A stretch of DNA of 62,969 nucleotides, counting the filler. It is 8 parts of 8 records of this genome, joined end to end, with 100 filler letters (N's around TTAATTAATTAA, not from the genome) between each part and the next. Parts side by side here need not be neighbours in the genome. Positions count along the whole stretch, not along the records: positions 1 to 14,509 come from SRR31156797_8016; 7 more parts are not named here. One strand, written 5' to 3'. Numbering within the stretch: position 1 is the first letter of the stretch; the number at the start of each line of letters is the position of its first letter. Shown in pieces: positions 2,325 to 19,728 of the stretch. Below the pieces are notes generated by a model. It saw only the letters and a list, made by a program, of their open reading frames with translations. It made no database searches and was not told the origin of the DNA. The translations under genes and the position numbers were made by a program.

Positions 2325-2939
2325 CTATTCTTTAAGAGCACTCAGCAGATATGACTCCACCTTTGTGCTTCCAACTCCGGGCATGCATTCTCCGGCCAAC
2401 GAGCATGAACGGCATTTCTTATCTTTGACAGCTGCCGGAGTACGGGCTTCGGCTATCATTTTATGGAGCTTTATAGCCGTTTCTTTTACCAGCACCTTAA
2501 GCTTATCGTCGAAAACAACAACTTCCCTGCGGCGAGGCTTACCGTAAAAGATAGCTCCTTCCGGGACTGAGCCCCCCAACATTTCTTCAAGACAAAGAGC
2601 CTGTGCGCAAAGCTGGACGCGATCCCAATCCAAAACCTTGGGGCTGCCCCTTTTGTATTCCACCGGATACGGGACTTCTCTTCCATCCGGTCCGGGAACC
2701 ATTTCTACAACATCGGCAATGCCGTATAATCCCAACCGCTCACTTTTAAGCGGTACGGATAAATCCTGATCAGCCCCGGCGCGCCTTCCCCGCTGTTCGG
2801 AATCGACGCGCCGGTGCATGATTCTGCCTTCCACAGTAAACCTGTTCTCAACCCAGACCTTTTCAACATGGATGAGGGCGCACTGGCGCGGGCAGAACAG
2901 ATAATGCTGTAATGCAGAAATAGAAAGTAATTCGGACAT
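2325..2939 (-). CDS. cas4: Cas4 exonuclease
   Basis: ISALQHYLFCPRQCAL, GIADVVE, PVEYKRG, QLCAQALCLEE and the C-terminal Fe-S cysteines CRSCSLAGEC. Confidence 0.97.
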   Translation of the reverse strand: MSELLSISALQHYLFCPRQCALIHVEKVWVENRFTVEGRIMHRRVDSEQRGRRAGADQDLSVPLKSERLGLYGIADVVEMVPGPDGREVPYPVEYKRGSPKVLDWDRVQLCAQALCLEEMLGGSVPEGAIFYGKPRRREVVVFDDKLKVLVKETAIKLHKMIAEARTPAAVKDKKCRSCSLAGECMPGVGSTKVESYLLSALKE

Positions 2940-2941
2940 GT

Positions 2942-3817: not shown

Positions 3818-3820
3818 GAT

Positions 3821-5539
3821 TTATGCCTCCGCAGTAGTCTGTTTGGGTGAGAAAAAATCCTGCCTTTGCTGATAATAACCGATGATAAACATGCCCTGCT
3901 TTTCCAGATTCAATGCCGCAGGAAAACCATCCTGCGAATCTACTTCGCCAAGTATTTCCTGAATTGATCTATCAAGATTCACCGCGTATCCGGGCTTATC
4001 CTTGCGAATTTTGGCAAGACCGTTCTGGGCATTGCGTAAAATAACAGGAAATGTCCTTGCCGGAGTAGCAGACGCGGAACTGAAAAAACGATCCCTGACT
4101 GTTGCGTTGCTGCCGGGAACAGCTTCTTCCTGGATCCGCTCCACAATGGCGAAAAGACGCCCCAGCCTGTACCCAATCTCACCATTTTCCTTATCAAGAG
4201 CCATATTGATCTCCTGTTGATAGTTACGAACCAGAACAGCCTTGATTATCCCGGCCCGGATATATCCGATATTTTTGTCAGCCCTGATCCTTCCTATAGC
4301 TGCGTTCAGCAGGGTCATGGGATAAGGGCTGTTTCTGATGATAGCTTTAAGCAACTGCCCGCTCAAAAGCGGTGATATATTCCGAGAATCCTGCTGGGCA
4401 GCAAGTTCTTTCAAAATCCACCACGGACTTGGATTTTCCGGGGTTTTCGGAGGTTTCCCAGCCAATGACATCTGTTCAAAATGTCTGCCGATATTGGAAA
4501 ACATTTCCCCGACCGTTCCCACATGCCAGAAGCGCACAGAGATACGCGCAGCATTAGGCGATAACCCCAACACGTAGAATGGAGTTTCAGGCTTACCGAG
4601 TTCACGGGGAAGCTTGCCTGAGGCCAGAGTGGACAACAGCCCACCTAGTCTTTTGGCAAGGTCCTTGTCTTCTGATTCCCTTGCCCCCATAACCAAACCG
4701 AATAATCCTTCTACTTCCTTTGGAGCTTCGGTCCAGAACAGCACGGTTGTATCCCCCACCTGAACCTTGCGCGAACTTCCCGGTGCCAGAAGATGGTTCA
4801 AAGCCGTGGTGTAGGCAAAGGCTGCTTTTTCGGAAATAGGCGAAAGCTGATTCTGTTTTTTCCCAAGCGATTCTGCGGAATCGATATTAAAGGACACAAG
4901 TGCGGCCCCTGCAGTCTGAGCACCGGGAACGCCTTTAATTTTGGCATGGGTATTTGGTATGGAGACATCGTCCTCACCAGTGACCAGACATTTCCCCTTT
5001 TTGCTCCCCGCCTTGCTGTCCAAAGACTTTGACCAAGCCTCGCGTATGGCCTCTCGTTCATGAAGAAAGCCCCGCTCTCCGTCGAGCCTGAAAACAAGAA
5101 AACTGTCCAGCACCTCATCCCAGCCCTTCAAGCTCTCGGCTTTCTCCGGCTCCCATTTCTCTAAAAAAGAAAGCAGAGCATCTCCGCCGTCATCATCAAC
5201 ACCTTTCAGAATGGTGCAGACTAAATCTTTAAAGCCCCCATGCGTCTTTGCCGTTCGCTCCGGTTTGCCTTTGCCGTCAACTCCCAAAACGTACCCGGTA
5301 TTATCCCATACAAAATTAGGAAGAACCGTGTTGCCACTTCTCCCGACAGGCCCCGGCACTTCAATCCGAACCGGTTTGCCGTTCTCACGCAAATCAAGAG
5401 GGTCGCCAACAAGATTGCCTTCACTATCAATGGTTAAACAAAAATGAACTCCCTGCTTTCCGAACCCGAATGGAGGGACATCCACATCAGGATCATCGGC
5501 CATACGAATGTAATAGTCATTGAGAGCCTGCAAAATCAT
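3821..5539 (-). CDS. cas8c: Cas8c/Csd1 large subunit
   Basis: MILQAL start overlapping the cas5 stop (ATGA), DNTGYVLG, CLVTG, LSPNAARISVRFW and GYYQQ. Confidence 0.96.
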   Translation of the reverse strand: MILQALNDYYIRMADDPDVDVPPFGFGKQGVHFCLTIDSEGNLVGDPLDLRENGKPVRIEVPGPVGRSGNTVLPNFVWDNTGYVLGVDGKGKPERTAKTHGGFKDLVCTILKGVDDDGGDALLSFLEKWEPEKAESLKGWDEVLDSFLVFRLDGERGFLHEREAIREAWSKSLDSKAGSKKGKCLVTGEDDVSIPNTHAKIKGVPGAQTAGAALVSFNIDSAESLGKKQNQLSPISEKAAFAYTTALNHLLAPGSSRKVQVGDTTVLFWTEAPKEVEGLFGLVMGARESEDKDLAKRLGGLLSTLASGKLPRELGKPETPFYVLGLSPNAARISVRFWHVGTVGEMFSNIGRHFEQMSLAGKPPKTPENPSPWWILKELAAQQDSRNISPLLSGQLLKAIIRNSPYPMTLLNAAIGRIRADKNIGYIRAGIIKAVLVRNYQQEINMALDKENGEIGYRLGRLFAIVERIQEEAVPGSNATVRDRFFSSASATPARTFPVILRNAQNGLAKIRKDKPGYAVNLDRSIQEILGEVDSQDGFPAALNLEKQGMFIIGYYQQRQDFFSPKQTTAEA

Positions 5540-6201
5540 GCGCACTGCCCTCCGTTACGGCATTCAATAATCCCGTTTTGCATAACCGGACGGAAAAACT
5601 CGGGGGTCATGCCAGCTTTGTAATCAATGTCGTGGAGCATCCATCCGAGATCGGTTTCACCTTCAATTTCAGAAACAGGAATATCTCCCTCAACCGGACT
5701 GAATGCAGCAGCAAATTCCCGGCAGCCCAGATAAGGACGATGAAAGCACTGCCCCTTTGCTGCACGACGATTGAAGATATCCAGATGCTTGCCGTCGTTA
5801 CGGTCTTCATTAGAGGTATATTCAAAACGGGCTTCAATGATGTAATCCACATCACGCAGAACCATAGCCGCACGCTGCTGTCGGACTTCTTCCACATAAA
5901 TCCGCAGATTACCTTTTCCGCTTTTCATGGCGGAACCGACCCCGGTCTTTCCTTTTACCGGAACTTTTGCCGAGACCTCGTTTCGCCGAATATTGTCGAA
6001 ACGAACAGATTTGAGCACATGGATTCTGTCCACCACCCACTTTATGCTCGGCTTCCAATAAATGGCTTCCAGAATCCCACGGGCAGCAGAGGGAGTCATG
6101 ACATCATAACTCACCCGTTCCACCTTCATTTCCGGGCGGGTGAAGCAAGCATAATCTCCCCAAACCCTCAATTTAACTCCTGTGGCCACATACACCTCCA
6201 T
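5536..6201 (-). CDS. cas5: Cas5c/Cas5d (crRNA-processing)
   Basis: ACFTRPEMKVERVSYDVMTPSAARGILEAIYWKP and PYLGCREF. Confidence 0.97.
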   Translation of the reverse strand: MEVYVATGVKLRVWGDYACFTRPEMKVERVSYDVMTPSAARGILEAIYWKPSIKWVVDRIHVLKSVRFDNIRRNEVSAKVPVKGKTGVGSAMKSGKGNLRIYVEEVRQQRAAMVLRDVDYIIEARFEYTSNEDRNDGKHLDIFNRRAAKGQCFHRPYLGCREFAAAFSPVEGDIPVSEIEGETDLGWMLHDIDYKAGMTPEFFRPVMQNGIIECRNGGQCA

Positions 6202-6205
6202 TTAT

Positions 6206-8359
6206 TTAAACTATGAAGTTGTCATTCGAAATATTTTCAGGAACCAACAATCCAGCTTCAAAATCATACAGACTCTCATCTACCAACACGGCATAACTTT
6301 CATCCACAATCTCAATTGCACCCATATCATTAAGTGCTGCAAATTGTTGCGTATAAACCTGTACTGTAAACTGTTGTAGCTTACGCAGAATGGATGCCGG
6401 AAAATCTGCAAAAACCAAATCACGCAGCAGTTTTTCGGCTTTATCATTGTATTTAACAATGATCGGGACCATTTCATTTTCAATAAGCCGAAATTTTTTG
6501 GCTGCCGTGCGAAAATCCCATTGGCCGTGGGGACTGTTCAAATCTTCAAGCACTTTCTTTTTGTCTAACTGATCACTTTTAAGCCAATAGGTATCCGCAA
6601 AAAAATGATGCATTGCTTGCGGGGAAAATGAATCCTCAGGATGCAGGCGCAATGTATTTTGAGCATTACCCGCCGCCTGCCGGAAGTGCCCGGCCAATCC
6701 TTCAGCAGGTTCAAAAACCGAGACCCGCCCCATCTCCGCCAGTTCGCCTTCGCGGTTACATCTTCCCGCAGCCTGAGCAATTGAATCAAGCCCGGCCAGT
6801 TCGCGGATGACAACGGGAAAACTTACATCAACACCGGCCTCAATAAGCTGGGTGCTGACGATACGGCACGGCTTTCCTGCAACGAGTCTGGTTCGAATAT
6901 CTGTCAGGACTTCCGAGCGGTGCGCAGGACACATCAATGCACTCAAATGGGCCGCTCCCGGTTCGTCTTTAATTTTGGAAAACAATTCCGCTGCACGAGT
7001 TCTGGTATTAACGATACATAAACCCTGCTCTGTCTCACAAATTTCCTGTGCAACTTCATCGAGGGACAAGACTCCTTTGTCATGCAGCTCTGTGCGTTTG
7101 AACTCTCTATGCATACGCTCCGGGTCCGGCGCCAGTTCTTCCGCTATTTCCAGACCATCAGTAAAGCTTTCAGATTTCTGTAATGCAGGCTGGGTGGCGG
7201 TACACAGCACAACACTGGAATTATAATTCTCGGTAAGCTCCTCTAGAGCACGCATGCACGGTTTGAGATATTCAACAGGCAGCATCTGGGCTTCGTCCAG
7301 AATCACAACCGATCCGGCAAGATTATGCAGTTTGCGGCAGCGGGAAGGCTTTGCAGCGAAAAGAGATTCGAAAAACTGAACATTGGTTGTCACCACGATT
7401 GGTGCATCCCAGTTCTCACAGGCAAGACGGTGCTTAAGACCCGCAAAAGGAATTTCTTCCTCATCTTTCAGCCTGCTGTCATCAAAATTGCTATGGTGCT
7501 CAATTACAGAACCGGGAGGGAAAATATCTTTAAAAACACGGGCGTTCTGCTCAATAATCGACGTGTAGGGAATGACGTAAATAATCCTGCGCATACCGTG
7601 TTTCAAGGCATGCTTAAAAGCGAAGGCCATGGAAGTAAGAGTTTTTCCGCCTCCGGTAGGCACTGTGAGTGTGAAAAGGCCGGGATTCAGGTCTGCACTT
7701 TCAAGGCAATGGTTCAAGATCTCGCAGCGAAGCTTATTAATGTGGGTGTCCGGCTTGAATTTGCTGATCCGTTCGTTAAGCCTCTCATTTAGAACTTCCA
7801 AGCTGGGCCCTGCTTCACGCATGGAAAACTTTTTTGCATCCATGAACCGCTCGGTATCCAAAAAATCTGCGTCCACCAATGCCGAAAAAAGCATGCGGGT
7901 AAAAAATGATAATTGAAAAGCGGAGGTAGGACGAAAAGGAAGCTCTGCAGAAACAAGCTTAAAGGATATTTCTGGTACGGACTCTATATAAGGTTCAGCT
8001 TTCTCCAAAATATCATCTAAAGATTCGCCCAAATCCGCATGTGATGAGTCCGGCAAACCTCCATGGTGTCCGGCTATGCAGAAAGACAATAATTTGCCAG
8101 CATGGCCTAGCTTATCAGACAACAACCTAGCGCCGATACTTTTATGGTCAACTATCGCATTTGAATTTGAATGAAGTTTTCTCTGAAAATCCGGCTTGAA
8201 CTTACCGTAGTCATGGAATTTACCGGCCAATTTACCCCAATCAGAACCAGCGAAAACAGCCGAAAATTTCGAAGCCAAAGCCGCGACTTCATCCAGATGA
8301 TCATCAAGAAGCTGCCACGCATCCTCATCAACCCCCTCTTTCGTATGTGCGTAATACAC
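6206..8359 (-). CDS. cas3: Cas3 HD-nuclease/helicase
   Basis: YAHT...HL, HDYGK, GHHGGL, LVDADFLD, Walker A PTGGGKT, DEAQ and QAAGRCNR. Confidence 0.98.
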   Translation of the reverse strand: MYYAHTKEGVDEDAWQLLDDHLDEVAALASKFSAVFAGSDWGKLAGKFHDYGKFKPDFQRKLHSNSNAIVDHKSIGARLLSDKLGHAGKLLSFCIAGHHGGLPDSSHADLGESLDDILEKAEPYIESVPEISFKLVSAELPFRPTSAFQLSFFTRMLFSALVDADFLDTERFMDAKKFSMREAGPSLEVLNERLNERISKFKPDTHINKLRCEILNHCLESADLNPGLFTLTVPTGGGKTLTSMAFAFKHALKHGMRRIIYVIPYTSIIEQNARVFKDIFPPGSVIEHHSNFDDSRLKDEEEIPFAGLKHRLACENWDAPIVVTTNVQFFESLFAAKPSRCRKLHNLAGSVVILDEAQMLPVEYLKPCMRALEELTENYNSSVVLCTATQPALQKSESFTDGLEIAEELAPDPERMHREFKRTELHDKGVLSLDEVAQEICETEQGLCIVNTRTRAAELFSKIKDEPGAAHLSALMCPAHRSEVLTDIRTRLVAGKPCRIVSTQLIEAGVDVSFPVVIRELAGLDSIAQAAGRCNREGELAEMGRVSVFEPAEGLAGHFRQAAGNAQNTLRLHPEDSFSPQAMHHFFADTYWLKSDQLDKKKVLEDLNSPHGQWDFRTAAKKFRLIENEMVPIIVKYNDKAEKLLRDLVFADFPASILRKLQQFTVQVYTQQFAALNDMGAIEIVDESYAVLVDESLYDFEAGLLVPENISNDNFIV

Positions 8360-8547
8360 ATGCCCCCCCTCATCTGACTGTCGCAGTGATCCACAATTAG
8401 AACATTATTATGACCACACTCATCACATACGCCTCTTATTTATAAAAATCAACGCAACTATACGCATAAACACTTACACATTTATATCGGCAGTATTCAT
8501 GCACCGAAAGCAGCTTTTGTTTCACGCACAGACACATCAGATCACCC

Positions 8548-8581
8548 AAAAAAAGGGCGACCCCAAATGGGACCGCCCTTT
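8548..8581 (-). terminator. Rho-independent terminator of the XRE gene
   Basis: Minus strand GGGCGGTCCC-ATTT-GGGGTCGCCC followed by T7. Confidence 0.8.
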
Positions 8582-8627
8582 GTCATATAATCAATCTTGC
8601 TACGAAACGTATTTCAGCTACGCGCAC

Positions 8628-8891
8628 CTATCCATTTCGGCACTCTTCTTCAACCATCTTAATTAGCTCTGAAGGAGCAACCTCCAACGCTTCGGAAAGA
8701 ATGAAAATTGTCTTCAAAGAAGGCTGACGCTTACCTCGTTCCAGCAAGGAAATAAACGTCCTATCCAAATCGCAAACATTAGCTAACCCCTCTTGGGAAA
8801 AAGACTTTTCTTTGCGCAGCGTGTGCAAAACTAAGCCAAAAGCAATTTCAAGAGTTGGTTGACAATTCATGCTTTGAAAAATAATGAGCAT
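8628..8891 (-). CDS. XRE-family HTH regulator, similar to R-M controller (C) proteins
   Basis: FGLVLHTLRKEKSFSQEGLA...DRTFISLLERGKRQPSLKTI. The true start may be the ATG at 8870. Confidence 0.88.
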   Translation of the reverse strand: MLIIFQSMNCQPTLEIAFGLVLHTLRKEKSFSQEGLANVCDLDRTFISLLERGKRQPSLKTIFILSEALEVAPSELIKMVEEECRNG

Positions 8892-8904
8892 GTGACTGCC
8901 GGTC

Positions 8905-8921
8905 GACGGACTATAGTCGTC
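8905..8921. promoter_or_regulatory. C-box-like palindrome GACTATAGTC
   Basis: Perfect 10-bp palindrome at 8909-8918 with GAC/GTC flanks, in the divergent intergenic region upstream of the XRE gene. Confidence 0.55.
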
Positions 8922-8964
8922 AATTTACATATATCTTAAAAAATCACTCAAAAGGAAACTTTAC

Positions 8965-9216
8965 ATGAAAAATAAATCTGAAACCAAAACAGGCTCTATC
9001 TTCCCAATAATAATGATTCTGCTGGGGCTTTGTCTTATCGTGGTTTGTATCTTTCCTGTTTTCCTTACAACAGTAGACGGCTTATATAGCTTTATTTTTA
9101 TGGGCCTTATCTCGATCATGACTGGCTACCAACTAAGATCCAACCAAAAAGAAATTACAGACCTCAAAAAGCATTTGGAAGAACTTCGGCCCCACAATCA
9201 GACAGACAACGACTAA
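8965..9216 (+). CDS. Small two-TM membrane protein
   Basis: RBS AAGGA, two hydrophobic segments and a coiled C-terminus. Confidence 0.65.
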   Translation: MKNKSETKTGSIFPIIMILLGLCLIVVCIFPVFLTTVDGLYSFIFMGLISIMTGYQLRSNQKEITDLKKHLEELRPHNQTDND

Positions 9217-9242
9217 TATTCAATACCAATTGAGAGAAAAAA

Positions 9243-10151
9243 TTGATCAAAAAAATTATATTCTTAATCTTCATATTCTTTGGAATGGCTCTAAACATAG
9301 GATGTGAAAGTATTCAGTATGGATATGAAGACACCTATGCGTATACTGTCTCTAAAGACACATACTTTGATGACTTTGAATTTCGGGACTACTTGAGAAG
9401 ATATTCAAAGCTATACAAAGAATACAATGCAAACAAAACAGTCGAGGTCGATTCGCAAGCTGCTGTGGCAGGACCAGCTCTTTCCGGTCTTATGGGTGCG
9501 GCTTCTCCCCCTCCCGGATTTACCAATCTTGCGGGAGGACTTTTAAATTTCTTATTTTGGTCTGGAACAAAAGTTTACCCATACCAGTTCCCGAAATTTT
9601 TTATCTGGGATAAATCTAAGTCCGAAGATACCCCTGAAAAAATCAATAAGGCAATTTCAGAACAGTTCTCCATTGCTGTTAAAGCGGAAGTCGAAAAGCG
9701 CAAACTGTTTTTAGGCTATAATTCGGAAATGACGAAAGAACTAAGCGAGGACGGTAAAATAGTTCTAGCGTTCAATAACGGGCAGAAAGATAGGGAGACA
9801 CCAATCTATTGTCGCATAGGTCTGGAACCAGTATATGATCTCCCTAAAAAAGAAAATTCCCCAAAAGGATTTGGTCCCAATGAGTCTTGGCATACAGCAG
9901 GGCCAATTGGAGGGTATTGCTTCTATCACACGGAAGCAATGTTTGGGTACAATACAAAAGGATATCCGTTCCCTTTTGCTAACTTTGAATTTTGGTTAAG
10001 CTTAAGCAAACGCCTGCCTTCTAATTTCTTTATTTATCTGGCTCCTGCGGGGAAATATTATTACTGCAAGTTTGAAAACGGCGAAAAACTAATGCACCCT
10101 GTCGTACTCAACCAAGGGCAACCCCACTGGTTCTATCCCGGTGCTAAGTAG
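9243..10151 (+). CDS. Hypothetical exported protein or lipoprotein
   Basis: 302-aa ORF with an N-terminal hydrophobic signal ending NIGC. No family recognised. Confidence 0.7.
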   Translation: MIKKIIFLIFIFFGMALNIGCESIQYGYEDTYAYTVSKDTYFDDFEFRDYLRRYSKLYKEYNANKTVEVDSQAAVAGPALSGLMGAASPPPGFTNLAGGLLNFLFWSGTKVYPYQFPKFFIWDKSKSEDTPEKINKAISEQFSIAVKAEVEKRKLFLGYNSEMTKELSEDGKIVLAFNNGQKDRETPIYCRIGLEPVYDLPKKENSPKGFGPNESWHTAGPIGGYCFYHTEAMFGYNTKGYPFPFANFEFWLSLSKRLPSNFFIYLAPAGKYYYCKFENGEKLMHPVVLNQGQPHWFYPGAK

Positions 10152-10203
10152 CCAGTTTCTCTCCACATATTAAAATCTATCTATACTGACATTATCAATT
10201 TAG

Positions 10204-10233
10204 AAGGCCTAGTCGGCGTGCCGATTAGGCCTT
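10204..10233. terminator. Hairpin between convergent genes
   Basis: AAGGCCTAGTCGGC-GT-GCCGATTAGGCCTT. Confidence 0.7.
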
Positions 10234-10309
10234 ATTTCATTTGTTTTCCCAATATTACGGAGAGCCACAAAACCCACCTCAAATGAGTCAAGCATGCTGC
10301 ATCCATAAA

Positions 10310-10843
10310 TCAGAATACGCTCCTCCCCATAGATCTTTCCTCTTTCATGGACTTGGCCTCTCTAATCAATTTATCTTCAGTCATCCCCTTATTCAGGACT
10401 TTAACTTGTTTCAGCCCATACTTCTTCTCCAGCTTTCGCATAACTTCCATATTTCGCCGCCTTGAAAACCGATCGCTCCAGACATCACGTCCATCACGAC
10501 TTATACGGTTAGCAATCAAATGATAATGAACCCGTCCTGTCTCAGTGTGCTTGTACAGGCAATATTCATGCTTCTGAGGGTCCATTTTCATTTCTCGCAT
10601 ATAATCCTCGGCTAGGTAACGTGGGTTCTTGATGACGTCACCTTTGGCAGGGTTAAGAGAGGCGTGGAAAACTACTTTTTTCGCACGCCCCTCATACATA
10701 TCACGAGTCTGGTTAAACTCCTTGGACAACTCTGCCGGACTTGCACCAAGCATATTCGTTGCCTCCAGACTCGCACCCATCTTTTCAGCACAATACCGGA
10801 CACAACCACCAAAGCCTTTTCCTTGGGTAATGTTTCCAATCAT
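10310..10843 (-). CDS. MOBP-type relaxase (minimal, 177 aa)
   Basis: N-terminal GKGFGGCVRY (catalytic Tyr), VFHASLN and HUH motif HTETGRVHYHLIANRI. Confidence 0.9.
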   Translation of the reverse strand: MIGNITQGKGFGGCVRYCAEKMGASLEATNMLGASPAELSKEFNQTRDMYEGRAKKVVFHASLNPAKGDVIKNPRYLAEDYMREMKMDPQKHEYCLYKHTETGRVHYHLIANRISRDGRDVWSDRFSRRRNMEVMRKLEKKYGLKQVKVLNKGMTEDKLIREAKSMKEERSMGRSVF

Positions 10844-11196
10844 TGAGTTACCTGCGAACGGATATCTTTTATGAGCCGAACAACATTATTAAGCCAGTCG
10901 ATTTGAGCCCCACTTAAACTGCGCTCCCCTTCTCTGGCCTGAATTACGATCACCTTGATTAACCCGCCGATCTTTCCAAGCTCGGCTACAGTCGCTTTAT
11001 TCACTTCTGGCAGGAAAGTAACACGACTTTTGAAGGCCATGTCCCGAAATAAATGACTAACTTTTTTGCCTGATCTCTGGGCTAATTTTTCTACCCGCAG
11101 ATACTCTTTTTCCGTCAAAGAGATATTGATTTGACGGCTGCGTTTCTCTTTATCTGGGAGAGGAGGACGGCCCCCTTTTCTATATTTGGAACTCAT
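10840..11196 (-). CDS. mobC: MobC/MobA ribbon-helix-helix relaxosome accessory protein
   Basis: GGRPPLPDKEKRSRQINISLTEKEY...ELGKIGG. RBS AAGGAG precedes the ATG at 11196, and the stop overlaps the relaxase start. Confidence 0.82.
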   Translation of the reverse strand: MSSKYRKGGRPPLPDKEKRSRQINISLTEKEYLRVEKLAQRSGKKVSHLFRDMAFKSRVTFLPEVNKATVAELGKIGGLIKVIVIQAREGERSLSGAQIDWLNNVVRLIKDIRSQVTQ

Positions 11197-11223
11197 GTGG
11201 GTCTCCTTCTTTTTCGAGGGGGA

Positions 11224-11278
11224 CCGGGGGAGCTTAGCTCCCCCGGCAAGCGTTTTGCCTAGGCAAAACACAGCTTGC
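11224..11278. promoter_or_regulatory. Candidate oriT
   Basis: Two adjacent inverted repeats directly upstream of mobC: CCGGGGGAGCT-T-AGCTCCCCCGG and GCAAGC-GTTTTGCCTAGGCAAAAC-ACA-GCTTGC. CTTGC resembles MOBP nic cores. Confidence 0.65.
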
Positions 11279-11328
11279 TCCCTCTTAATAGGACGGAACT
11301 ATATAGTCAGTATTTCTTTAATCTTTGA

Positions 11329-13062
11329 CTACAGAATCTGCCTTTCCAGTTCGAAAACCCATTCAGCAAGAACATCTTTAGGAAACCTTTTTTCCAAGGC
11401 TTGTCTCTCCCAATGAAGCTTAGTCACCGCAGGTACACCTGATATACGAATAAACCCTTCTGCTCCACCTCTTGGTAGATCGCGGGAATGCCGAAGACTT
11501 TCAAGCTCTCCGGGGTTAACTACAGTCTCACGCACAATGGAATAATTCTGCGAGTTTTTGTTACTCATGAATTCACCTCCAGCGAACTGCTTTCCTGTCG
11601 CTTTCACTTCGGCCTCACAAAAACCAAGACTTTGCGCTGCAAGATCTGCATTTTTATGATCATTCGCTCTAAGCCAAATCTGGTTATTGCACTGGTTTAT
11701 AAACGTATGAGCTTCATTCTTTCCATAAACATCATATAGCTGTGTCACATCTTGAGTCGCCACAACACACCTTAATCCACGATCTCGACCAAGAGTCAGT
11801 CCGCGCTTAAGATTCGGAATTTTGGGAAAATTGGACAACTCGTCCATAATTAGCCAAACCCGATGATCATCTTCTGGCATTTGCAGCATACGTTTAATCG
11901 CAAGAGCAGCCATCGAAACGCACATCGCTGTCGAAAAGCTATGAAAGGTCTCATCCACACGGAGAACCAAAACACCACCATCTTTTTTCTCAAGCCAATC
12001 CGTTAAGCAAAAATCAGGATTATCTCCAAATGCAGACTGAGCATCTCGAATCCATTTTCCAACACTCCCTTGAAGTGTTGTCCAAGTGGCCTGAGTTTGA
12101 TCACTTCCTCTGTTAATGGCATCTAGAGCAGTTCTCGCTGATTCATATCTGTGAAGTAGACCCGGGAGCCACTCTCCTTCGCCTTCCCTGCCAATCAACT
12201 TTTCCTGCGAAATGGTATATTCTTTTAACTTATCCCATGACAGCTGGCCGTCGTTCAACAGACAAGTCAAAATTGCCGTGAATATAATTTGAGCCTGCTC
12301 GACAAAGAAGTCTTCCTTTCCTGCTCCACCTTCAGCCTTCTCTTTGAAGACAAATGAAGAAGCCAAGAGCTCACAATCTTTGCTGTTTCTTATTTCGCGT
12401 AACAGATCCCATTTGACTGAGCGTTCATCCCAAGGAGCCATAATATCGACATTTTCATAGCCAGCTAAGGCTTCAGTGAAATCTCCTTTGACATCAAACA
12501 GAATAACCTTATCGCCTCGCTGTATTGTTTGCTTAATGATACTCGATAGTATTGCGCTCGTCTTAGCAGCACCAGTTGTCCCTATGCAGCTAATGTGCTC
12601 TGTTTCTGCCTCACGCGATAGCTGCACTTGTGGATGAATGAAGATGCCGGAACTAAAGCGTTTGTTTTTCTTATTCCCGGAATTCACTATTTTTGAATAT
12701 TTTTTTGCAGAAACGAACTGCATTCCACTCACGACCGATTTACTAACGTTGCTTTTCGTTATCCGTGTACTCAAAAAGTAAATGGCTAAAACAAAAATAC
12801 TAGCAGCCCCAATCAGAGCGATAAATATATAGCTCTTTTCAACAGGCCAGTTATAAATTTCGCCATAGACATATATAGCATCGTTATGAACCTTAATTAG
12901 CCATTCTGGAGCCAAATTTATTTCGTAAAGCCACTGAGTTAAATTAATAAACGGCAAATAGAAGTACCATCCTCCCCAGTGACCTGCGAGGAATTTAAAA
13001 GCAAATTCTCCAGCAAATAGGGAAACAAACAATGATGCTAACAAGATCTTAAATATTTTCAT
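11329..13062 (-). CDS. Type IV coupling protein (TrwB/TraD family)
   Basis: N-terminal TMs, Walker A GTTGAAKT, FDVKGDF, Walker B WLIMDEL and ATQDVTQLYDVYG. Confidence 0.9.
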   Translation of the reverse strand: MKIFKILLASLFVSLFAGEFAFKFLAGHWGGWYFYLPFINLTQWLYEINLAPEWLIKVHNDAIYVYGEIYNWPVEKSYIFIALIGAASIFVLAIYFLSTRITKSNVSKSVVSGMQFVSAKKYSKIVNSGNKKNKRFSSGIFIHPQVQLSREAETEHISCIGTTGAAKTSAILSSIIKQTIQRGDKVILFDVKGDFTEALAGYENVDIMAPWDERSVKWDLLREIRNSKDCELLASSFVFKEKAEGGAGKEDFFVEQAQIIFTAILTCLLNDGQLSWDKLKEYTISQEKLIGREGEGEWLPGLLHRYESARTALDAINRGSDQTQATWTTLQGSVGKWIRDAQSAFGDNPDFCLTDWLEKKDGGVLVLRVDETFHSFSTAMCVSMAALAIKRMLQMPEDDHRVWLIMDELSNFPKIPNLKRGLTLGRDRGLRCVVATQDVTQLYDVYGKNEAHTFINQCNNQIWLRANDHKNADLAAQSLGFCEAEVKATGKQFAGGEFMSNKNSQNYSIVRETVVNPGELESLRHSRDLPRGGAEGFIRISGVPAVTKLHWERQALEKRFPKDVLAEWVFELERQIL

Positions 13063-13909
13063 TTTTAGCCTCCGCATAGCTGAGAACAAAGTCAATTGGG
13101 ATGGAGCGATCTTCTACCTTTAAATGTGTGAGTTCTCTCTCACGTAAAGTCGAAAGGAATTTATCAGCGCCATATTTGTTGATAAGTTCATCAAGTAAGG
13201 AAGCCCAATCCTCATAAGTATTTTTATGGTTATCTATAATATTGAAAGCTTCTTTTTTTAAACTTTCGATGTCACCTAGCCCTTGCTCAAATTTCTTTTT
13301 AACAGCAGTGGCCCATCCACTAGGGTTATCCTTTTGACTCGCAACGATCTGGATCATTTTTTCGAGATCCTCATCGAGTGTTGGACTTGAATGAGCAAGA
13401 AAAACGCAACCACCTTCTTCGCAAACAGAACGTTGTTTTTGTGGTGTTATTTTTTCGGAGTTACTTGGTATAGTAGGCTCTTTTGTCCGGTTAACTCGGC
13501 CATTATTACCACTTTGGTCGGCCTTATGTGCTAGGCAGTCCGGCATAAATGGCAACTGGAAGAACACATTATGGAGAACAAAAAAATAGTTATTACTCCT
13601 ATGAGAACAGCCAGAATTTATTAAAATAAATCCTTTCTTTTTAAGACCAAAAAGAGCTCTTCTTATCGTCCTACCGCTATACCCAGACTGTTCTGCGATA
13701 GTCTTCTGTTTAGGAAAGCATTCGCCATCGTAGCCAGCATAAAGAGCTAAAATTCTCCATACTTCGCGCTCAGATGGTGTTAGCAACTTTCTTTGTTTAC
13801 GCATAAAATCAATAATACCATTCCCGAAACAAAGTAATGGAATGATAATAAAACACGTATCCTGCTTTTTATCTCCAACAACCGTTGTCATATCTTTTTT
13901 ATTACTCAT
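13049..13909 (-). CDS. Winged-HTH replication initiator-like protein
   Basis: CFPKQKTIAEQSGYSGRTIRRALFGLKKKGFI (HTH_36-like); lies between xis and the T4CP. Confidence 0.7.
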   Translation of the reverse strand: MSNKKDMTTVVGDKKQDTCFIIIPLLCFGNGIIDFMRKQRKLLTPSEREVWRILALYAGYDGECFPKQKTIAEQSGYSGRTIRRALFGLKKKGFILINSGCSHRSNNYFFVLHNVFFQLPFMPDCLAHKADQSGNNGRVNRTKEPTIPSNSEKITPQKQRSVCEEGGCVFLAHSSPTLDEDLEKMIQIVASQKDNPSGWATAVKKKFEQGLGDIESLKKEAFNIIDNHKNTYEDWASLLDELINKYGADKFLSTLRERELTHLKVEDRSIPIDFVLSYAEAKNENI

Positions 13910-13922
13910 CTTCGAATCTCTC

Positions 13923-14114
13923 TTATACTTCTATATACGAATCGATTGTTTCAACGGTACAATCAGTTATAAACTCATCTAAATCATCCATTGAATATAA
14001 AACTCTACTGCCTATTTTTTTATACCTAGGACCCTTTCCATAACTTCTCCACACTTCAAGTGTGTTTGGTCTTAAACCAAGGTACTCAGCAGCTATAATT
14101 GTATCAAGCAACAT
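13923..14114 (-). CDS. Excisionase-like HTH protein
   Basis: AAEYLGLRPNTLEVWRSYGKGPRYKKIGSRVLY; RBS GAAGGAG. Confidence 0.88.
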   Translation of the reverse strand: MLLDTIIAAEYLGLRPNTLEVWRSYGKGPRYKKIGSRVLYSMDDLDEFITDCTVETIDSYIEV

Positions 14115-14258
14115 AAAAACTCCTTCATATAAAACACATCTAATTGTTTAATTATAATTATAAACAAAGAATCAACATCACATACGCTATCTAAAATCTA
14201 TGCAAGAATGCAAAAGATCAGATACTTATATAGTTATTAACTAATTAATATTAGTAGT

Positions 14259-14509
14259 ATGTTGTGACGGCACAAAACCGTAGGTTTGCAACTGTATGCA
14301 GAAGAAACAGATACAATATGTTGGAGTGGCACAAAGCCAATAGATTCGCAGTTACCTGAAAAACAGATAAATGCGTGATGTTGAAATGGCAAAAGCCATG
14401 ATAGCGTAAACGTCTGAAAACAAACAATTACGTTAGATTATGATGACACAAGTGCCAAAAAAGCAGTTGCGTTAGGTTATGGCGGCACGAAGCCGTGGGG
14501 ACGCAAGTG
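14259..14509 (-). repeat. Degenerate tandem array of ~59-nt structured units (at least 5; truncated by contig end)
   Basis: Units start at 14259, 14318, 14378, 14435 and 14474. Each has a YGGY-(TTTGT)-GYCR hairpin on the minus strand, and a second hairpin lies between them in the three full-length units. Confidence 0.75.
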
Positions 14510-14609
14510 NNNNNNNNNNNNNNNNNNNNNNNNNNNNNNNNNNNNNNNNNNNNTTAATTAATTAANNNNNNNNNNNNNNNNNNNNNNNNNNNNNNNNNNN
14601 NNNNNNNNN
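14510..14609. other. Artificial contig linker (also 22183-22282, 30794-30893, 37067-37166, 46914-47013, 52140-52239, 57399-57498)
   Basis: 100-bp N runs containing TTAATTAATTAA (stops in all frames). Composition changes across the linkers. Confidence 0.99.
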
Positions 14610-14748
14610 TACCTCAGTTTCTCCCTCTTAGCTCTTCTTCTTCCCTTCTTTTACTAGTTTTTAAAACCTTGTATATTAATTATTTTATTTTACTTCAATG
14701 TAATGTAAAATCATATATTATTATTAAAATAATATCATTAGGTTTGTT

Positions 14749-17700
14749 TTGTTTGAAGAAAAAAAATTAGAGTATTTAGATTTTACATACAACAACTTTA
14801 ACATATATACTGCATCAGATAAAAATAAAAATAAATATATAGTAAAAACAACAAAAGATTTGTATTCTAATAGAGATGATATTTTATTATTAGAAAACGA
14901 ATATAATATATTGAAAAAATTAACTAATAAAAGATTATTATTACCACTTGATATTGAAAAGTATGATAATAGAATTTATTTATATTTTGAATATTTTGAT
15001 GGTTTTAGTTTAAGACATTTTTTTAATAATATAAATAGTACTCAACTTCTTAAGTTTTTATCTATATCAATTAAAATTATAGAGGTATTAAATTACATAC
15101 ATAAAAATAGGATTATTCATAATTTTATTAATTGTAATTCTATTTTAATAAATAAAGATTTTAGCGAAATAAGACTTGTTAATTTTGAATATAGTTTTTA
15201 TTTAAATAATTCTGATATAAAACCTTTTATTAATAATGGAATATATACTGCTCCTGAACAAACGGACAGAATAGATTTAAATCCTAATGAAAAAACAGAT
15301 ATTTATTCATTAGGTGTGTTGTTTTATGAATTGATAATTGGTCAAGATAATTATAGTGAAATGTTTAAAGATATTTCTACTTATGATATAGTTGCAAAAG
15401 AGTTACCAAAACTTTCAAGTATCAAAAATGATTTCCCTGAACTTATATCTAATATCATACATAAAATGATTGTTAAAAATCCTGATGATAGATATGATAG
15501 TCTTTTATCATTACTTATTGATTTAAAAAAAGCTTTTAATCAATTGACAAAATCAAAACAAATAGATAATTTCCCTTTAGATACTTTAAAAAAAGATTTT
15601 TTAACTGGGAACAAAAATTTGTTTTTTGGTAGAGATGAAGAAATAACATCTTTTTTAATAAATTTTTCAAATGATAAAGATACTAATCAACTATATGTTA
15701 TTTCTGGAAAGTCTGGAACAGGAAAAACAACTTTTATAAAAAAAGGTATTGAATATTATAAAAATAGTTTTAATCTTATAGAAGTGAAATTTGATAACTA
15801 TAAACAATATATACCTTATAAAACTTTATTTAACAGTTTTAGAACTTTGTGTAAAGAGATTTTGATAAAAGACAAATCTGAATTATTACATTGGAAAAGC
15901 AAACTTTTAGTTAGTATTGGTGAAGAGATACAAGTTTTATTTGACTTTATTCCTGAATTAAAAACAATAGTTGGTGAACAAGATTCAATTGAAGTATTGA
16001 ATCTTGTAGATTCAAAAAATAGATTTAACAATATACTTATAAAATTTTTACAGCTTTTTGCTACTAAAAAAAATCCATTAATCATATTTTTAGATGATAT
16101 GCAGTGGAGCGATAATATTACACTTGAATGGCTTGATAGTTTTATTCAAAGAGTTTCTTATGTAAAAGTTGTTTTAACATATAGAGATAATGAAGTTGAT
16201 AAAAATTCATTGTTATTAAAAAAAATAAAAAGCATAAAAAAATCAGCAGTAAGAGTTTTTGAATACCATATAAAAGAGTTAACTAAAGTTAATATAGAAA
16301 ATTTAATTACTACAAATATTGAGCTAAATAATTCTAGTTTATTTTCTACTCTTGTTTATAAAAAAACTGGAGGTAATGCATTTTTTGTAATTCAATTTTT
16401 AAAAGATTTGTTATATGAAAAAGTTTTGTATTTTGACGAAGAGAAATTAACTTGGAATTATGATGTTGAAAGACTAAATAAAGTTAATGCAAAAAGTAGT
16501 ATTATCGAGTTTCTTGAAAAAAGAATTTCTATTTTAAGTGATAATGAAATTTTACTATTGCAAATTGCATCTTGTGTTGGAAATCTATTTTCATATAAAA
16601 TTCTTAAAAACATTACTAAATTAGATGATGATTTTGATAATACTTTAAAGATGTGTTTAGATAATGAGTGGATTTCAAAAAGTGGGTTAGTTGATAATAA
16701 ATATTTTCAATTTTCCCATGATAGAATTCAGCAAGTTTTTTATTCATCTATAAATGAAAAAACTCTTATTTCTTTTCATAAGTTGATTGGTGATTTCTAT
16801 TATAAAGATTTTAAAAGTAGGAACGAAGAAAATCTTTTATTGTGTGTGAACCATTATAACAAAGCGAAAAAACATTTTATTGAAAACTCAAAAACAAAAA
16901 CTCTAGGAAAGCTTAATCATAAGGCTTCATTATTAGCTAGAAAAAATGGAGATTTTGAATTATCAGACAGTTATATAAATAAACTGTTTGAGTTTTATAA
17001 TGGAATAGAAACTGATATAAATTATGGAGAATACTTAAAAGATTATGCAGTTTGTAAACACTTAATTTATAATCAAACTAAAGCAATAGAGTTTTACTAT
17101 AAAGCTCTGGATAATTGTAATGATGATTTAAAAAAAGCATATATTTATGAGCAGCTGATAAAACTTTATAGTGATTTTTCAGATTTTGAAAGTGCTTATA
17201 AAATAGGGAAAAAAGCTTTAAGTTTATTTGATATTTTTATACCTAGTGGATTTAATCCTATTCTTTTTGTAAAAGAATTTTTAGAACTAAAAATCAAACT
17301 AAGTGGTAAAAATACAGAAGACTTACTAAAGCTAAAAGAAGCAGAAGATGAGAGAGTTATTATTGCTATTAAACTATTATCTTGTGTATTAAAAGCAGCT
17401 TATCAAATAAAACCCCAGCTATGTGTTCTAGTTGCAATGAAAGTTGTGAAAGCTTGTATTAAGTATGGAGATACAAAAGACGCAGTAATTGGCTTTATGG
17501 TTTTTGGAATAATCTTTCAAGGAGCAGTGTTGGGTAATCATAAATTGGGATATGATTATGCAATGCTATCTTTAAATATGATAAAAAAATATAAAAATTC
17601 AATTTTAGAACCAGAGGTTAAATTTGTTTCTGGTTATTTTGGATTATCTTGGATTAATCCTACTTCAATTACAGAAAAAAACTGGAATGAATCTTATAAA

Positions 17701-19728
17701 AATGGTATTTTAATTGGAGATTTATTTCATAGTGCATGTGCGGCAACAGGTATAAGTGAAAGTATGTTTTTAAGAGGCTGTAAGTTCTCAGAATTGAATA
17801 AACAGTTGGATGTTTTTATAAAAGAGTTATCAAAACGTGGAGGTAGTGAACAACTAGCTATTATTGTAGGTATTAAACAAGCACTAAAAAATATTCAAGG
17901 GAAAACCTATAGTTTAGATACCTTTAGTGATGAGAGTTTTGATGAGAATAAATATATTAAAAAACTTGATAATTTTAGCTCTTTACATTTTGCGCATATA
18001 TTTTATATTAATAAAATAATTACACTTTATTTTCATGAAAAATATGAATTATCTTTAAAATATATTGAGATAAGTAAACAATATTTAAATGATTCAAAAG
18101 GTACTGTTCATTCTACTGAACACTATTTTTATGAATCATTAATTTACTCTAAACTTTTAGATACTGTTGGATTTAAAGATAAAATTTTGTTTATTAATAA
18201 AATCAAAAAAAACACAAAAATGTTTGAAGAATATGCAAAACTTTGCCCTGAGAATTTTGTTGTAAGAAAATATATTTTAAATGCAATAGTTGCAAAAGTA
18301 AAAAATGACTATATTTTAGCTCAAAAATATTTTTTTAAAGCATTAGAGATAGCAAAAGTGTATTCTCAACTAAATTTAAAAACAATTGCATCAAAAAATT
18401 TATTTGAGATTTATACATATTTAGAGCAAACTAGATTTGCAAATATTTATAAAAATGAATATATAAAAAATATAAGAGAGTGGAGTGGTTTTACTAATAA
18501 TTTAAAAGAAAATGAAAGAATTGAAAATATAAGTCTGGATATATATACTTTAATTAAATCAAGCGAAATTATTTTTAAGGAAAAAGAACTTTCTTCTCTT
18601 CTAAAAAGTCTTATTAAAATTTTACTTGAAAGTTCTGGTGCCCAAAATGCAATAATCATATTAGAAGAAGATTTTGAATACAAAGTTGAAGCTTTTGCTT
18701 GTAATAATGATTTATCTTCAATTAAGGTATTAGTTAATAAAGAGTACAAAAAATTTGAATATCTTCTTCATGATATTGTTAAATATGTTATTAGAACAAA
18801 AGAGCAAATTGTAATAAATGATTTGGAAAAAGAACCACTTTTTTTTACAGAAAAAGAAAATAGAAAAGTTAAATCAGTACTCTCTTTTCCTTTAATATTA
18901 CAAGATAATTTAAAGGGTGTAATTTATCTAGAAAACAATCTTATATCTGGGGTTTTTACCGAAGAAAAAATTGAACTGCTTAAACATATTAGTACACAAA
19001 TTGCAATCTCCATTGAGAATGCGAAAATATATAAAAATCTAGAAGAAAAAGTACAGAATAGAACAAAAGATTTAGATAATAAAAATGAAGTATTACAGAA
19101 GCAAAATAGACTTTTACAAGAGCAAAATAAGAAAATACTTAATTTAAACACAAGTATTATTGAAGAAAATGAAAAGAGGAAAATTGTAGAATTAAAACTG
19201 CAAAAAGCAGTTAAAGAATTAGATCTTTTAGCAACAACAGATTCTTTAACAAAATTAAAAAATAGAAGAGTTTTTGATAAGGTTTTGGAAGAAGAGTGTA
19301 TGAGAGTTTCAAGAAATAACGATACTTTGTCATTAATAATGTGCGATATTGATTATTTTAAAAGATATAATGATTTTTATGGTCATGTACAAGGGGATGA
19401 GTGCTTGAAGTTCGTTTCAGAAATATTAGAAAGCAATATAAAAAGAACAACTGATGTGATTGCTAGATATGGAGGAGAAGAGTTTTCTATTATTATGCCA
19501 AATACAAAAAAAGAAGAAGCAATAACTTTAGCTAATAATATTATAAAAAGCTTTGCAAAAGAGCAAAAGCTGCATGAAAAATCAGATATTGCAAATCATA
19601 TAACTATTAGTATGGGAGTTGCAAGTTCAAATGAAATTGAAATTTTAACACCAAAAAATCTAATAAGAGCTGCTGATAATAAACTTTATGAAGCAAAAGA
19701 GAATGGAAGAAACCAAGTAAAATATTAA
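14749..19728 (+). CDS. Multidomain (pseudo)Ser/Thr kinase - AAA ATPase - helical repeats - GAF - GGDEF diguanylate cyclase
   Basis: APEQT and DIYSLG kinase motifs; Walker A GKSGTGKT; LDDMQW; GAF GVIYLEN; DIDYFK...RTTD-ARYGGEEF. Confidence 0.9.
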   Translation: MFEEKKLEYLDFTYNNFNIYTASDKNKNKYIVKTTKDLYSNRDDILLLENEYNILKKLTNKRLLLPLDIEKYDNRIYLYFEYFDGFSLRHFFNNINSTQLLKFLSISIKIIEVLNYIHKNRIIHNFINCNSILINKDFSEIRLVNFEYSFYLNNSDIKPFINNGIYTAPEQTDRIDLNPNEKTDIYSLGVLFYELIIGQDNYSEMFKDISTYDIVAKELPKLSSIKNDFPELISNIIHKMIVKNPDDRYDSLLSLLIDLKKAFNQLTKSKQIDNFPLDTLKKDFLTGNKNLFFGRDEEITSFLINFSNDKDTNQLYVISGKSGTGKTTFIKKGIEYYKNSFNLIEVKFDNYKQYIPYKTLFNSFRTLCKEILIKDKSELLHWKSKLLVSIGEEIQVLFDFIPELKTIVGEQDSIEVLNLVDSKNRFNNILIKFLQLFATKKNPLIIFLDDMQWSDNITLEWLDSFIQRVSYVKVVLTYRDNEVDKNSLLLKKIKSIKKSAVRVFEYHIKELTKVNIENLITTNIELNNSSLFSTLVYKKTGGNAFFVIQFLKDLLYEKVLYFDEEKLTWNYDVERLNKVNAKSSIIEFLEKRISILSDNEILLLQIASCVGNLFSYKILKNITKLDDDFDNTLKMCLDNEWISKSGLVDNKYFQFSHDRIQQVFYSSINEKTLISFHKLIGDFYYKDFKSRNEENLLLCVNHYNKAKKHFIENSKTKTLGKLNHKASLLARKNGDFELSDSYINKLFEFYNGIETDINYGEYLKDYAVCKHLIYNQTKAIEFYYKALDNCNDDLKKAYIYEQLIKLYSDFSDFESAYKIGKKALSLFDIFIPSGFNPILFVKEFLELKIKLSGKNTEDLLKLKEAEDERVIIAIKLLSCVLKAAYQIKPQLCVLVAMKVVKACIKYGDTKDAVIGFMVFGIIFQGAVLGNHKLGYDYAMLSLNMIKKYKNSILEPEVKFVSGYFGLSWINPTSITEKNWNESYKNGILIGDLFHSACAATGISESMFLRGCKFSELNKQLDVFIKELSKRGGSEQLAIIVGIKQALKNIQGKTYSLDTFSDESFDENKYIKKLDNFSSLHFAHIFYINKIITLYFHEKYELSLKYIEISKQYLNDSKGTVHSTEHYFYESLIYSKLLDTVGFKDKILFINKIKKNTKMFEEYAKLCPENFVVRKYILNAIVAKVKNDYILAQKYFFKALEIAKVYSQLNLKTIASKNLFEIYTYLEQTRFANIYKNEYIKNIREWSGFTNNLKENERIENISLDIYTLIKSSEIIFKEKELSSLLKSLIKILLESSGAQNAIIILEEDFEYKVEAFACNNDLSSIKVLVNKEYKKFEYLLHDIVKYVIRTKEQIVINDLEKEPLFFTEKENRKVKSVLSFPLILQDNLKGVIYLENNLISGVFTEEKIELLKHISTQIAISIENAKIYKNLEEKVQNRTKDLDNKNEVLQKQNRLLQEQNKKILNLNTSIIEENEKRKIVELKLQKAVKELDLLATTDSLTKLKNRRVFDKVLEEECMRVSRNNDTLSLIMCDIDYFKRYNDFYGHVQGDECLKFVSEILESNIKRTTDVIARYGGEEFSIIMPNTKKEEAITLANNIIKSFAKEQKLHEKSDIANHITISMGVASSNEIEILTPKNLIRAADNKLYEAKENGRNQVKY

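Follow-up and report, generated by a model that had tools for sequence, protein, structure and literature searches.

What is the array of short hairpins that closes the first contig of the DNA studied here, upstream of a gene for an excisionase-like protein (xis)? The window, that is, the whole stretch of DNA that was analyzed, comprises 62,969 bases in eight contigs with N linkers between them, and the array occupies positions 14258-14509 on the minus strand, where its five recognizable units run into the very end of contig 1 (1-14509, GC 0.449). A previous sequence-only reading of this locus had described it as a probably non-coding series of co-varying double hairpins, a candidate for a novel structured RNA or a set of hairpins in single-stranded DNA (ssDNA). 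The analysis presented below establishes a real, statistically supported, strand-specific tandem array of double hairpins that no tool used here places in a known family. The interpretation preferred here, with a rough probability of only 0.35, is that the array would act as a structured RNA leader or as an upstream non-coding RNA, in the sense orientation of an operon that encodes the xis product, a replication-initiator-like protein (Rep), a type IV coupling protein (T4CP), a NikA-like protein and a relaxase.

Structure and extent of the array

A repeat search identifies five copies, spaced 59, 60, 57 and 39 nt apart, that start at 14259, 14318, 14378, 14435 and 14474; their identity to the reference copy is 71-76%. 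A 22-nt consensus, with up to three mismatches allowed, has three matches in the window, all of them within the array (the mean in shuffled sequences is 0.04, and none of the 100 shuffles reaches three). The degenerate units and spacings given in the sequence-only reading are confirmed. Tandem Repeats Finder reports three rows in the window, none at the array, because the units, which are 63-66% alike per column, are too diverged for this program.

The minus strand of the array consists of nine hairpins that alternate between a long type, B, and a short type, A. In hairpin B, a 1x1 mismatch lies between 4-6 outer and 4-7 inner pairs, and the loop is U4-U6; hairpin A has a GGC/GCC core, 4-5 pairs and a UUUGU-type loop. 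The linkers that separate the hairpins are free of G, and most of them carry AAC(A/C)T or AATCT. The units are denoted U0 to U4, starting from the contig end (Table 1). Hairpin B is formed by 5+6 pairs, with a T.T mismatch and a UUUU loop, in U2 and by 4+7 pairs, with a U5 loop, in U3; the version in U4 is weaker (5+4 pairs and an 11-nt loop), and the B-type hairpin of the 39-nt unit U1 consists of six pairs, a 1x1 mismatch, four pairs and a U5 loop. All the hairpins quoted in the sequence-only reading are present in the sequence; two of its assignments, however, require correction. The 39-nt unit, which was thought to have lost most of hairpin B, actually keeps a B-type hairpin and has lost hairpin A, and TGGCAC-TT-GTGTCA, which was listed as a hairpin A, is better read as the 3' half of the B hairpin of the same unit.

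The contig break at 14509 is real, and a second assembler also stops inside the array. A search of the Logan contigs detects this DNA in a single run and in no RNA run; the contig of the single run is identical over 13500-14509 and continues for 48 nt, namely five letters followed by 43 nt that resemble 14457-14499 with seven differences and complete U0; this run is probably the window's own source, so the contig does not represent independent data. Given that the extension resembles a unit, the array includes at least one further unit, i.e., at least six. Contig extension, which had been proposed as a check, thus carries the array 48 nt further and reaches no gene beyond 14509.

Folding, strand preference and compensated pairing

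RNA folding of the minus strand over 14250-14509 yields a structure of -67.1 kcal/mol made of the alternating hairpins (z = -4.64, with none of the 200 shuffles as good), compared to z = -2.19 for the plus strand, where 8 of the 200 shuffles fold as well. These values agree with the assignment of the structure to the minus strand, the same strand that carries the xis-rep-T4CP-mob genes. When DNA parameters are used, the two strands fold equally well (z = -3.14 for minus and -2.81 for plus), i.e., the strand asymmetry is present with RNA parameters and absent with DNA parameters. Taken alone, U2 (-16.8 kcal/mol, z = -4.79) and U3 (-17.7 kcal/mol, z = -3.93) each fold into a B+A double hairpin, and these two units as well as U1 (z = -3.71; energy in Table 1) are matched by none of 200 shuffles each. 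The fold of U4 is weaker (-12.3 kcal/mol, z = -1.59, 12 of 200 shuffles as good), and the cut unit U0 has z = -0.65, with 46 of 200 shuffles as good.

A structure of 16 pairs was placed on the alignment of the five units, and the resulting 62 pair cells were scored against 500 shuffles. Standard pairs fill 90.3% of these cells, compared to 83.3 +/- 2.1% in the shuffles, none of which reaches the observed value, and 6 of the 16 pairs are changed on both sides, a count attained by 2 of the 500 shuffles. The latter measure is the robust one and was rarely falsely positive in the tool's own trials. The compensatory changes that had been claimed from a few arms are, then, detectable among the five paralogous units. 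The 13 non-Watson-Crick cells are unevenly distributed: as read on the minus strand, seven are G.T, none is A.C and six are pyrimidine-pyrimidine, and the 7:0 ratio of the two transition-type mismatches has a two-sided binomial p of 0.016, in agreement with the earlier remark that the array contains G-U pairs that work on the minus strand only. Pairwise identity is highest in the A loop (0.89) and the B loop (0.82), followed by the A stem (0.77), linker 2 (0.63), the B stem (0.59) and linker 1 (0.38). This combination of conserved centers with variable, compensated arms favors a folded single strand over a palindromic DNA site bound by a dimer, for which the opposite is expected. To the extent that the sequence alone can tell, pairing, strand bias and loop conservation favor a single-stranded structure of minus, i.e., transcript, sense over a protein-binding palindrome.

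A candidate leader of the excision operon

The strand on which the array folds is the coding strand of the xis-rep-T4CP-nikA-relaxase operon. Within 13800-14509, including the interval between the array and xis, there is no terminator-like site on the minus strand and no consensus sigma-70 promoter (shuffled sequences average 3.5 of the latter). Given this orientation, the lack of a terminator before xis and the lack of a promoter, the simplest reading is that the array is RNA that would be part of the xis leader or run into it.

The AT-rich stretch of about 144 nt between the array and xis contains the xis Shine-Dalgarno sequence, a palindrome (14143-14172) and a 10-nt box (14172-14181) that is fully complementary to the U2/U3 linker. 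The array contains three copies of the linker hexamer CAACAT, and the complement of this hexamer, ATGTTG, is found twice, on the same strand, in the 158 nt downstream of the array; at least two copies are present in 18 of 5000 shuffles. One ATGTTG lies inside the 10-nt complement (a length attained by 34 of 1000 shuffled leaders), and the second one is formed by the xis start codon and the second codon; the minimum free energy structure of the 425-nt leader includes the 10-nt linker pairing. In L030, one of the related modules described below, the hexamer of the array linkers recurs in a local hairpin or palindrome, CATGTTG-N7-CAACATG (7729-7750), which lies directly next to the Shine-Dalgarno sequence of the xis homolog.

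These observations are compatible with the following scheme. The array would be transcribed either as a long 5' leader of the operon or as an upstream non-coding transcript that runs into it. In this RNA, at least six modules of about 59 nt would present the U-loop hairpins B and A, which would keep the short, G-free AAC(A/C)U linkers single-stranded between them. The exposed CAACAU linkers could then pair with the two downstream AUGUUG boxes of the same molecule, one located about 60 nt upstream of xis and the other one over the xis start codon. Such pairing would hold down translation of the excisionase and hence excision and transfer, and the hairpins would, in addition, shield the leader from decay that depends on the 5' end. 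A more specific proposal, namely that the array represents an undescribed modular RNA of at least six units of about 59 nt, each with a long and a short U-loop hairpin that display a CAACAU linker, and that it governs both excision and transfer of an integrative mobilizable element, either by multivalent pairing around the xis start or in the form of unit-length small RNAs with a partner encoded beyond the contig break, is quite tentative and, on balance, unlikely.

Several considerations weigh against the leader interpretation. The array is a singleton across all the collections searched: a model of the unit, R1 (58 positions, 16 pairs), picks up no more than the five units of the window itself (24.5-73 bits), finds nothing in 151 genomes of the family and, among 26 genomes of the host genus, produces one match at E ≤ 0.1 (E = 0.07), which on inspection is an ordinary terminator. 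No repeat array is present at the homologous position in the integrase-ORF-xis-rep modules L028, L029 and L030. The sequence-only reading had listed the lack of homologous arrays in related elements among the findings that would speak against it; as far as searched, there are none. Because the array is a singleton, the covariation is limited to five paralogous units of one locus, and the slid-partner control, in which pairing drops to 25-48% when partners are shifted by 1-3 columns, is inflated, given that the structure was derived from the same unit sequences. The G.T asymmetry could stem from strand-biased C-to-T mutation pressure (the minus strand contains 91 T vs 42 G), and stable DNA hairpins likewise prefer T-rich loops. 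The 7- and 10-nt complementarities are short, AU-rich and noticed post hoc, with p values of only 0.004-0.03, and CAACAT/ATGTTG is a common hexamer in L030, with 18 copies in 17 kb. Finally, the mobile element looks decayed, so that the array may be free of selection.

Searches for relatives of the array and of its neighbors

Beyond the genomes listed above, R1 detects nothing significant elsewhere in 17 sources, and its best match in five genomes with related modules has E = 0.6. The phage collection contains no match to the array, and the plasmid collection none to the array DNA or to Rep. A two-hairpin pattern selects 28 stretches among viral contigs, none of which has an R1 match below E = 0.89. 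A search for an inverted copy of the whole unit in the leader, performed with R1 and the filters off, yields 6.7 bits at best.

An exhaustive HMMER search started with the Rep-like protein retrieves 511 proteins at E ≤ 1e-3, only two of them at E ≤ 1e-30. No close relative emerges from the word-indexed protein search (0 of 3936 candidates) or from the scan of genome contigs (0 of 84 stretches confirmed). Among 401 sampled genomes of Desulfovibrionales, 20 have matches at E ≤ 1e-5, and three of these are real relatives, with 44% identity in G295 and G191 and 31% in G235. All three share the order integrase, 242/244-aa ORF, xis, rep, and in G235 the module continues with T4CP, nikA and a full-length relaxase gene. 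In L028, L029 and L030, the upstream ORF and xis are no more than about 120-170 nt apart, and the intervening stretch of L028 contains an ordinary terminator; xis homologs occupy the same position in L028 and L030. An alignment of three Rep sequences, searched against metagenome contigs, finds one weak locus of 1441 nt.

The ORF of 242-244 aa between the integrase and xis genes is itself conserved (L028 9438-10166, L029 10068-10796, L030 6908-7642). No Pfam family matches it, and searches of PHROG and NCBIfam with the L028 copy are likewise negative.

With the T4CP as the query, the 15 plasmid matches listed show 24-27% identity, and all 5000 counted records are below 60%; none of the 50 candidates among metagenome contigs is confirmed. 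The T4CP relatives in L001 and L002 belong to different architectures and have no array. L002 is a plasmid-like contig of Spirochaetales with direct repeats of 21 bp and 33-34 bp beside a Rep_3 gene (8968-9072 and 547-639); these are ordinary iterons, in contrast to the array.

Alternative explanations

The alternative that survives best, although it is unlikely, is an origin that operates at the DNA level, with the units as iteron-like sites for the O-like/HTH_36 initiator encoded two genes downstream and the AT-rich segment of about 140 bp as the unwinding element; the inverted copy of CAACAT near the promoter would then be an autoregulatory operator. The layout is indeed that of an iteron-type oriV, i.e., tandem direct repeats, a highly AT-rich stretch (GC 0.15-0.33) and the xis-rep operon, with a partial repeat inverted in the promoter region, and the downstream protein matches PHROGs for replication initiation and O-like proteins as well as HTH_36. 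There is a precedent in SGI1, an int-xis-rep module with direct repeats, AT-rich DNA beside xis and rep, and an iteron-based oriV in the xis-rep intergenic region, as described in PMC7433901. That account, however, describes four GC-rich 17-bp iterons and a DnaA box, whereas the array is built of double-hairpin units of 57-60 nt, 63-66% conserved per column, and repeats of the iteron type are well conserved and about 17-22 bp in length (PMC7433901). In the array, the arms vary with compensation and the centers are best conserved, the reverse of what a palindrome bound by a dimer would show, and the one-sided G.T pattern would be meaningless in duplex DNA. A DnaA box (at most two mismatches to the consensus) is absent from the array; the two found in 13900-14509 are located in xis (one mismatch) and in the AT-rich stretch (two mismatches). 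Relatives that encode an initiator of the same family (31-44% identity) also lack a repeat array near xis and rep.

Next comes the possibility, likewise unlikely, that the array is a functionless minisatellite, produced by tandem expansion of a unit with two palindromes and decaying at the edge of a longer array, in which pairing would be maintained by ancestry and by template-switch 'quasipalindrome correction' rather than by selection. Such an origin is consistent with the singleton status of the array in the collections searched, with its location in an accessory island that is missing from two close relatives of the host and with the truncated relaxase in the same element. Both assemblies of the same run break inside the array, as expected if more uniform copies follow, and the outermost unit, U4, folds worst. 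It sits uneasily with the pairs changed on both sides (six, a number reached by 2 of 500 shuffles), with the 7:0 excess of G.T over A.C mismatches, with loops that are more conserved than the stems and with the fact that the units differ by 35-40%, yet 90% of the cells pair.

Protein-titrating RNAs such as CsrB/RsmZ and CrcZ consist of many short hairpins, with a short motif repeated in exposed positions. The array has a comparable layout, with at least nine hairpins that have conserved U-rich loops and at least seven single-stranded copies of AAYMU between them, and might thus be a multivalent RNA that is bound or cut by a protein, either a sponge of this type or a precursor of small RNAs of about 59 nt (or about 30 nt) that serve as antitoxin or decoy, with the partner encoded beyond the contig break. 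This is improbable. The loops contain no GGA, the AANAANAA motif is missing and the repeated motif is AAC(A/C)U instead. The same idea has been raised for another tandem-hairpin element, the MAEB motif, by Weinberg et al. 2007 (PMC1950547). The 14.5-kb contig encodes no candidate partner; the genes downstream of the array are HTH_17 and HTH_36 ones, and PADLOC has no hits for five neighboring or overlapping ORFs. The RNAs of type III toxin-antitoxin systems (ToxI, CptI, TenpI) resemble the array in being tandem non-coding repeats of tens of nucleotides in mobile DNA, but differ in that they are built of near-identical repeats, downstream of which come a terminator and a gene for an endoribonuclease toxin. 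The units of the array are far from identical (63-66% column identity, which upholds the distinction drawn in the sequence-only reading), there is no terminator after them, and xis and rep come next; hence a type III antitoxin array was rejected as an identity.

The least probable of the alternatives, and a very improbable one, is that the hairpins work as ssDNA while the element is transferred by conjugation or replicated by a rolling-circle mechanism, where they would serve as oriT or nic sites, as a single-strand origin or as single-strand promoters. Although the array adjoins T4CP, nikA and relaxase genes, its hairpins form with DNA parameters as well (z = -3.14) and T-rich loops suit DNA hairpins, DNA parameters do not tell the strands apart, the MOBP nick consensus YATCCTGY is absent from the array, the relatives have no array, and a conserved block with two inverted repeats, shared with L030, is located upstream of nikA, the classical place for an oriT. 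The usual rule for the orientation of oriT has the relaxase genes enter last. Together with the position of this block between T4CP and nikA, the rule implies that the transferred strand would be plus, the strand that carries the A.C mismatches and folds worse, so that the transfer-strand hairpins of the original proposal are disfavored. With the block at about 11197-11290 available for this role and the array absent from L030, the array is probably not an oriT.

Comparison with known families and described elements

The array is not a coding repeat. No frame is open throughout, and the peptide of hairpin A is encountered in each of the three minus-strand frames, which agrees with the non-coding nature proposed from the spacings. 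A cmscan search against Rfam 15, suggested earlier as a check, covers 13000-15500 on both strands at E ≤ 10 and returns three chance-level matches (E = 0.73-5.7), all far below the gathering scores and none within 14258-14509.

A CRISPR array is rejected because the units are homologous to one another over both of their halves (the B parts of U2 and U3 are about 61% identical) and there are no unrelated spacers. One linker resembles the end of the I-C repeat, and this resemblance prompted a second model, R2, built from 11 I-C repeats. Run over 8400-14509 with the filters off, R2 reaches 6.1 bits at best in the array (E = 3.6) and covers only TTGAAAT; thus, the array is neither a mimic of I-C repeats nor an RNA anti-CRISPR, and its dissimilarity to those repeats, as stated in the sequence-only reading, holds.

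The attC sites of integrons carry inverted core sites, RYYYAAC ... GTTRRRY, on one strand of a 57-141-nt site. No such pair exists on either strand of 14200-14509, where the single matches are the same two sites seen from opposite strands. In REP/BIME elements, neighboring palindromic units alternate in orientation; in the array, one strand carries the T-rich loops of both A and B. No further copy in the window is detected by R1, and at E ≤ 0.1 its sole match in the 26 genomes of the host genus is the terminator mentioned above.

Among described elements, the MAEB motif of Burkholderia seems to be the nearest. Weinberg et al. 2007 (PMC1950547) describe it as a series of tandem hairpins, in 2-12 copies with conserved linkers, located 5' of a gene; its function is unknown, and both a CsrB-like sponge and a DNA site have been raised. 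The two elements share small head-to-tail hairpins, conserved linkers, the 5' configuration, some covariation and the same open choice between RNA, DNA site and sponge. They differ in that MAEB has one type of hairpin and hundreds of dispersed loci upstream of metabolic genes, in Burkholderia only, whereas the array has two alternating types, a 59-nt module and one locus, in a mobile element; the comparison is made with the description of MAEB. The 'excisionase' motif of Actinobacteria, also compared by its description (PMC1950547), is a covarying hairpin 5' of a Xis-type gene, interpreted as RNA or a double-stranded DNA site; it is, however, a single hairpin of 10-15 bp from another phylum, and the array comprises at least nine hairpins and ends 144 nt upstream of xis. 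Judged by these descriptions, the array resembles such elements and is a member of neither family. A full-text search of the literature finds no description of a comparable array beside an excisionase gene.

If the array is a functional RNA, it would show that a mobilizable island can control its own excision in a new manner, through a leader in which the copy number of the units could tune repression, and MAEB would no longer be the only documented example of tandem hairpins with conserved linkers. If it is an origin, its iteron architecture would be unusual for O-like initiators. At present, the array is a single instance, located in a decayed element and at the end of a contig.

Gene neighborhood and host

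The features of contig 1 are collected in Table 1. The conserved non-coding block just upstream of nikA is, by its position, a candidate oriT. Alignment with L030 suggests that nikA probably starts at the ATG at 11196 and not at the GTG at 11271 of the listed ORF. The truncation of the relaxase gene indicates that the element is decayed at that end and probably no longer mobilizable alone. The integrase and the 242-aa ORF of the related modules are absent from the window; by synteny, they could lie beyond the contig break. Between the cas block and the relaxase gene there are about 2 kb of unrelated small genes.

Table 1. Features of contig 1, with coordinates in the window (bits are scores of the unit model R1)
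Feature	Position	Strand	Support or remark
U0, cut by the contig end: 3' arm of hairpin B, hairpin A (CGGC-TTCGT-GCCG), linker CATAACCTA	14473..14509	-	R1 37.5 bits
U1, 39 nt: B-type hairpin only, linker CATCATAATCTA, hairpin A absent	14434..14472	-	fold -9.6 kcal/mol
U2, 57 nt: hairpin B, linker, hairpin A (ATGGC-TTTT-GCCAT), linker TTCAACATC	14377..14433	-	R1 68.4 bits
U3, 60 nt: hairpin B, linker AATCTAT, hairpin A (TGGC-TTTGT-GCCA), linker CTCCAACATA	14317..14376	-	R1 73 bits
U4, 59 nt, last before the AT-rich region: hairpin B, hairpin A (ACGGT-TTTGT-GCCGT), linker CACAACATA	14258..14316	-	R1 69.6 bits
AT-rich stretch from array to xis, GC 0.15-0.33 in 40-nt windows	14115..14257	-	
xis-like gene, 63 aa, HTH_17	13923..14114	-	Pfam E = 2.6e-9; PHROG 'excisionase and transcriptional regulator' E = 7e-6
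Replication-initiator-like protein, 286 aa, HTH_36	13049..13909	-	PHROGs: replication initiation E = 4.8e-11, O-like E = 1.6e-9
Type IV coupling protein, 588 aa	11329..13095	-	Pfam TrwB_AAD_bind E = 1e-58; best relative 53% identical
Conserved non-coding block with two inverted repeats, candidate oriT	11197..11290	-	alignment with L030 (about 11150-11250)
NikA-like relaxosome accessory gene	10840..11196	-	
Truncated MobA/VirD2-type relaxase, 177 aa	10310..10843	-	matches residues 1-162 of the 299-aa L030 relaxase, 66% identity
cas2-cas1-cas4-cas7-cas8c-cas5-cas3	987-8359	-	contig 1
Degenerate I-C CRISPR array	118-808		contig 1

The contigs of the window range from 0.25 to 0.57 in GC content; the record therefore mixes organisms, and neighboring contigs cannot be used as mutual context. 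The host of contig 1 was placed with the help of Cas8c, which is 95% identical in G348 and 89% in G276, and is likely to be Desulfovibrionaceae-like. The segment 777-8374 aligns with G348 at 89.8% and with G276 at 87.3%, and synteny with both ends at 8374-8377, just upstream of cas3. No DNA match to 8360-14509 is found in either of these two closest genomes, which places the array in an accessory island beside the CRISPR-Cas locus.

The 11 I-C repeats of that locus are unusually degenerate, with 60-78% identity to the reference copy and changes on both hairpin arms. Positions 444-789 match, with 96.5% identity, the far end of a G348 array that consists of about 50 uniform repeats (L036 62-407). 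From this match, the CRISPR array of the window appears to keep only the leader-proximal repeat and an old 'fossil' trailer; the missing uniform part could reflect either a real loss or assembly collapse.

Contig 2, with a GC content of 0.25, clearly comes from another organism. It encodes, at 14749-19728, a protein of 1659 aa that combines Ser/Thr kinase, AAA_16/STAND ATPase, TPR, GAF and GGDEF domains.

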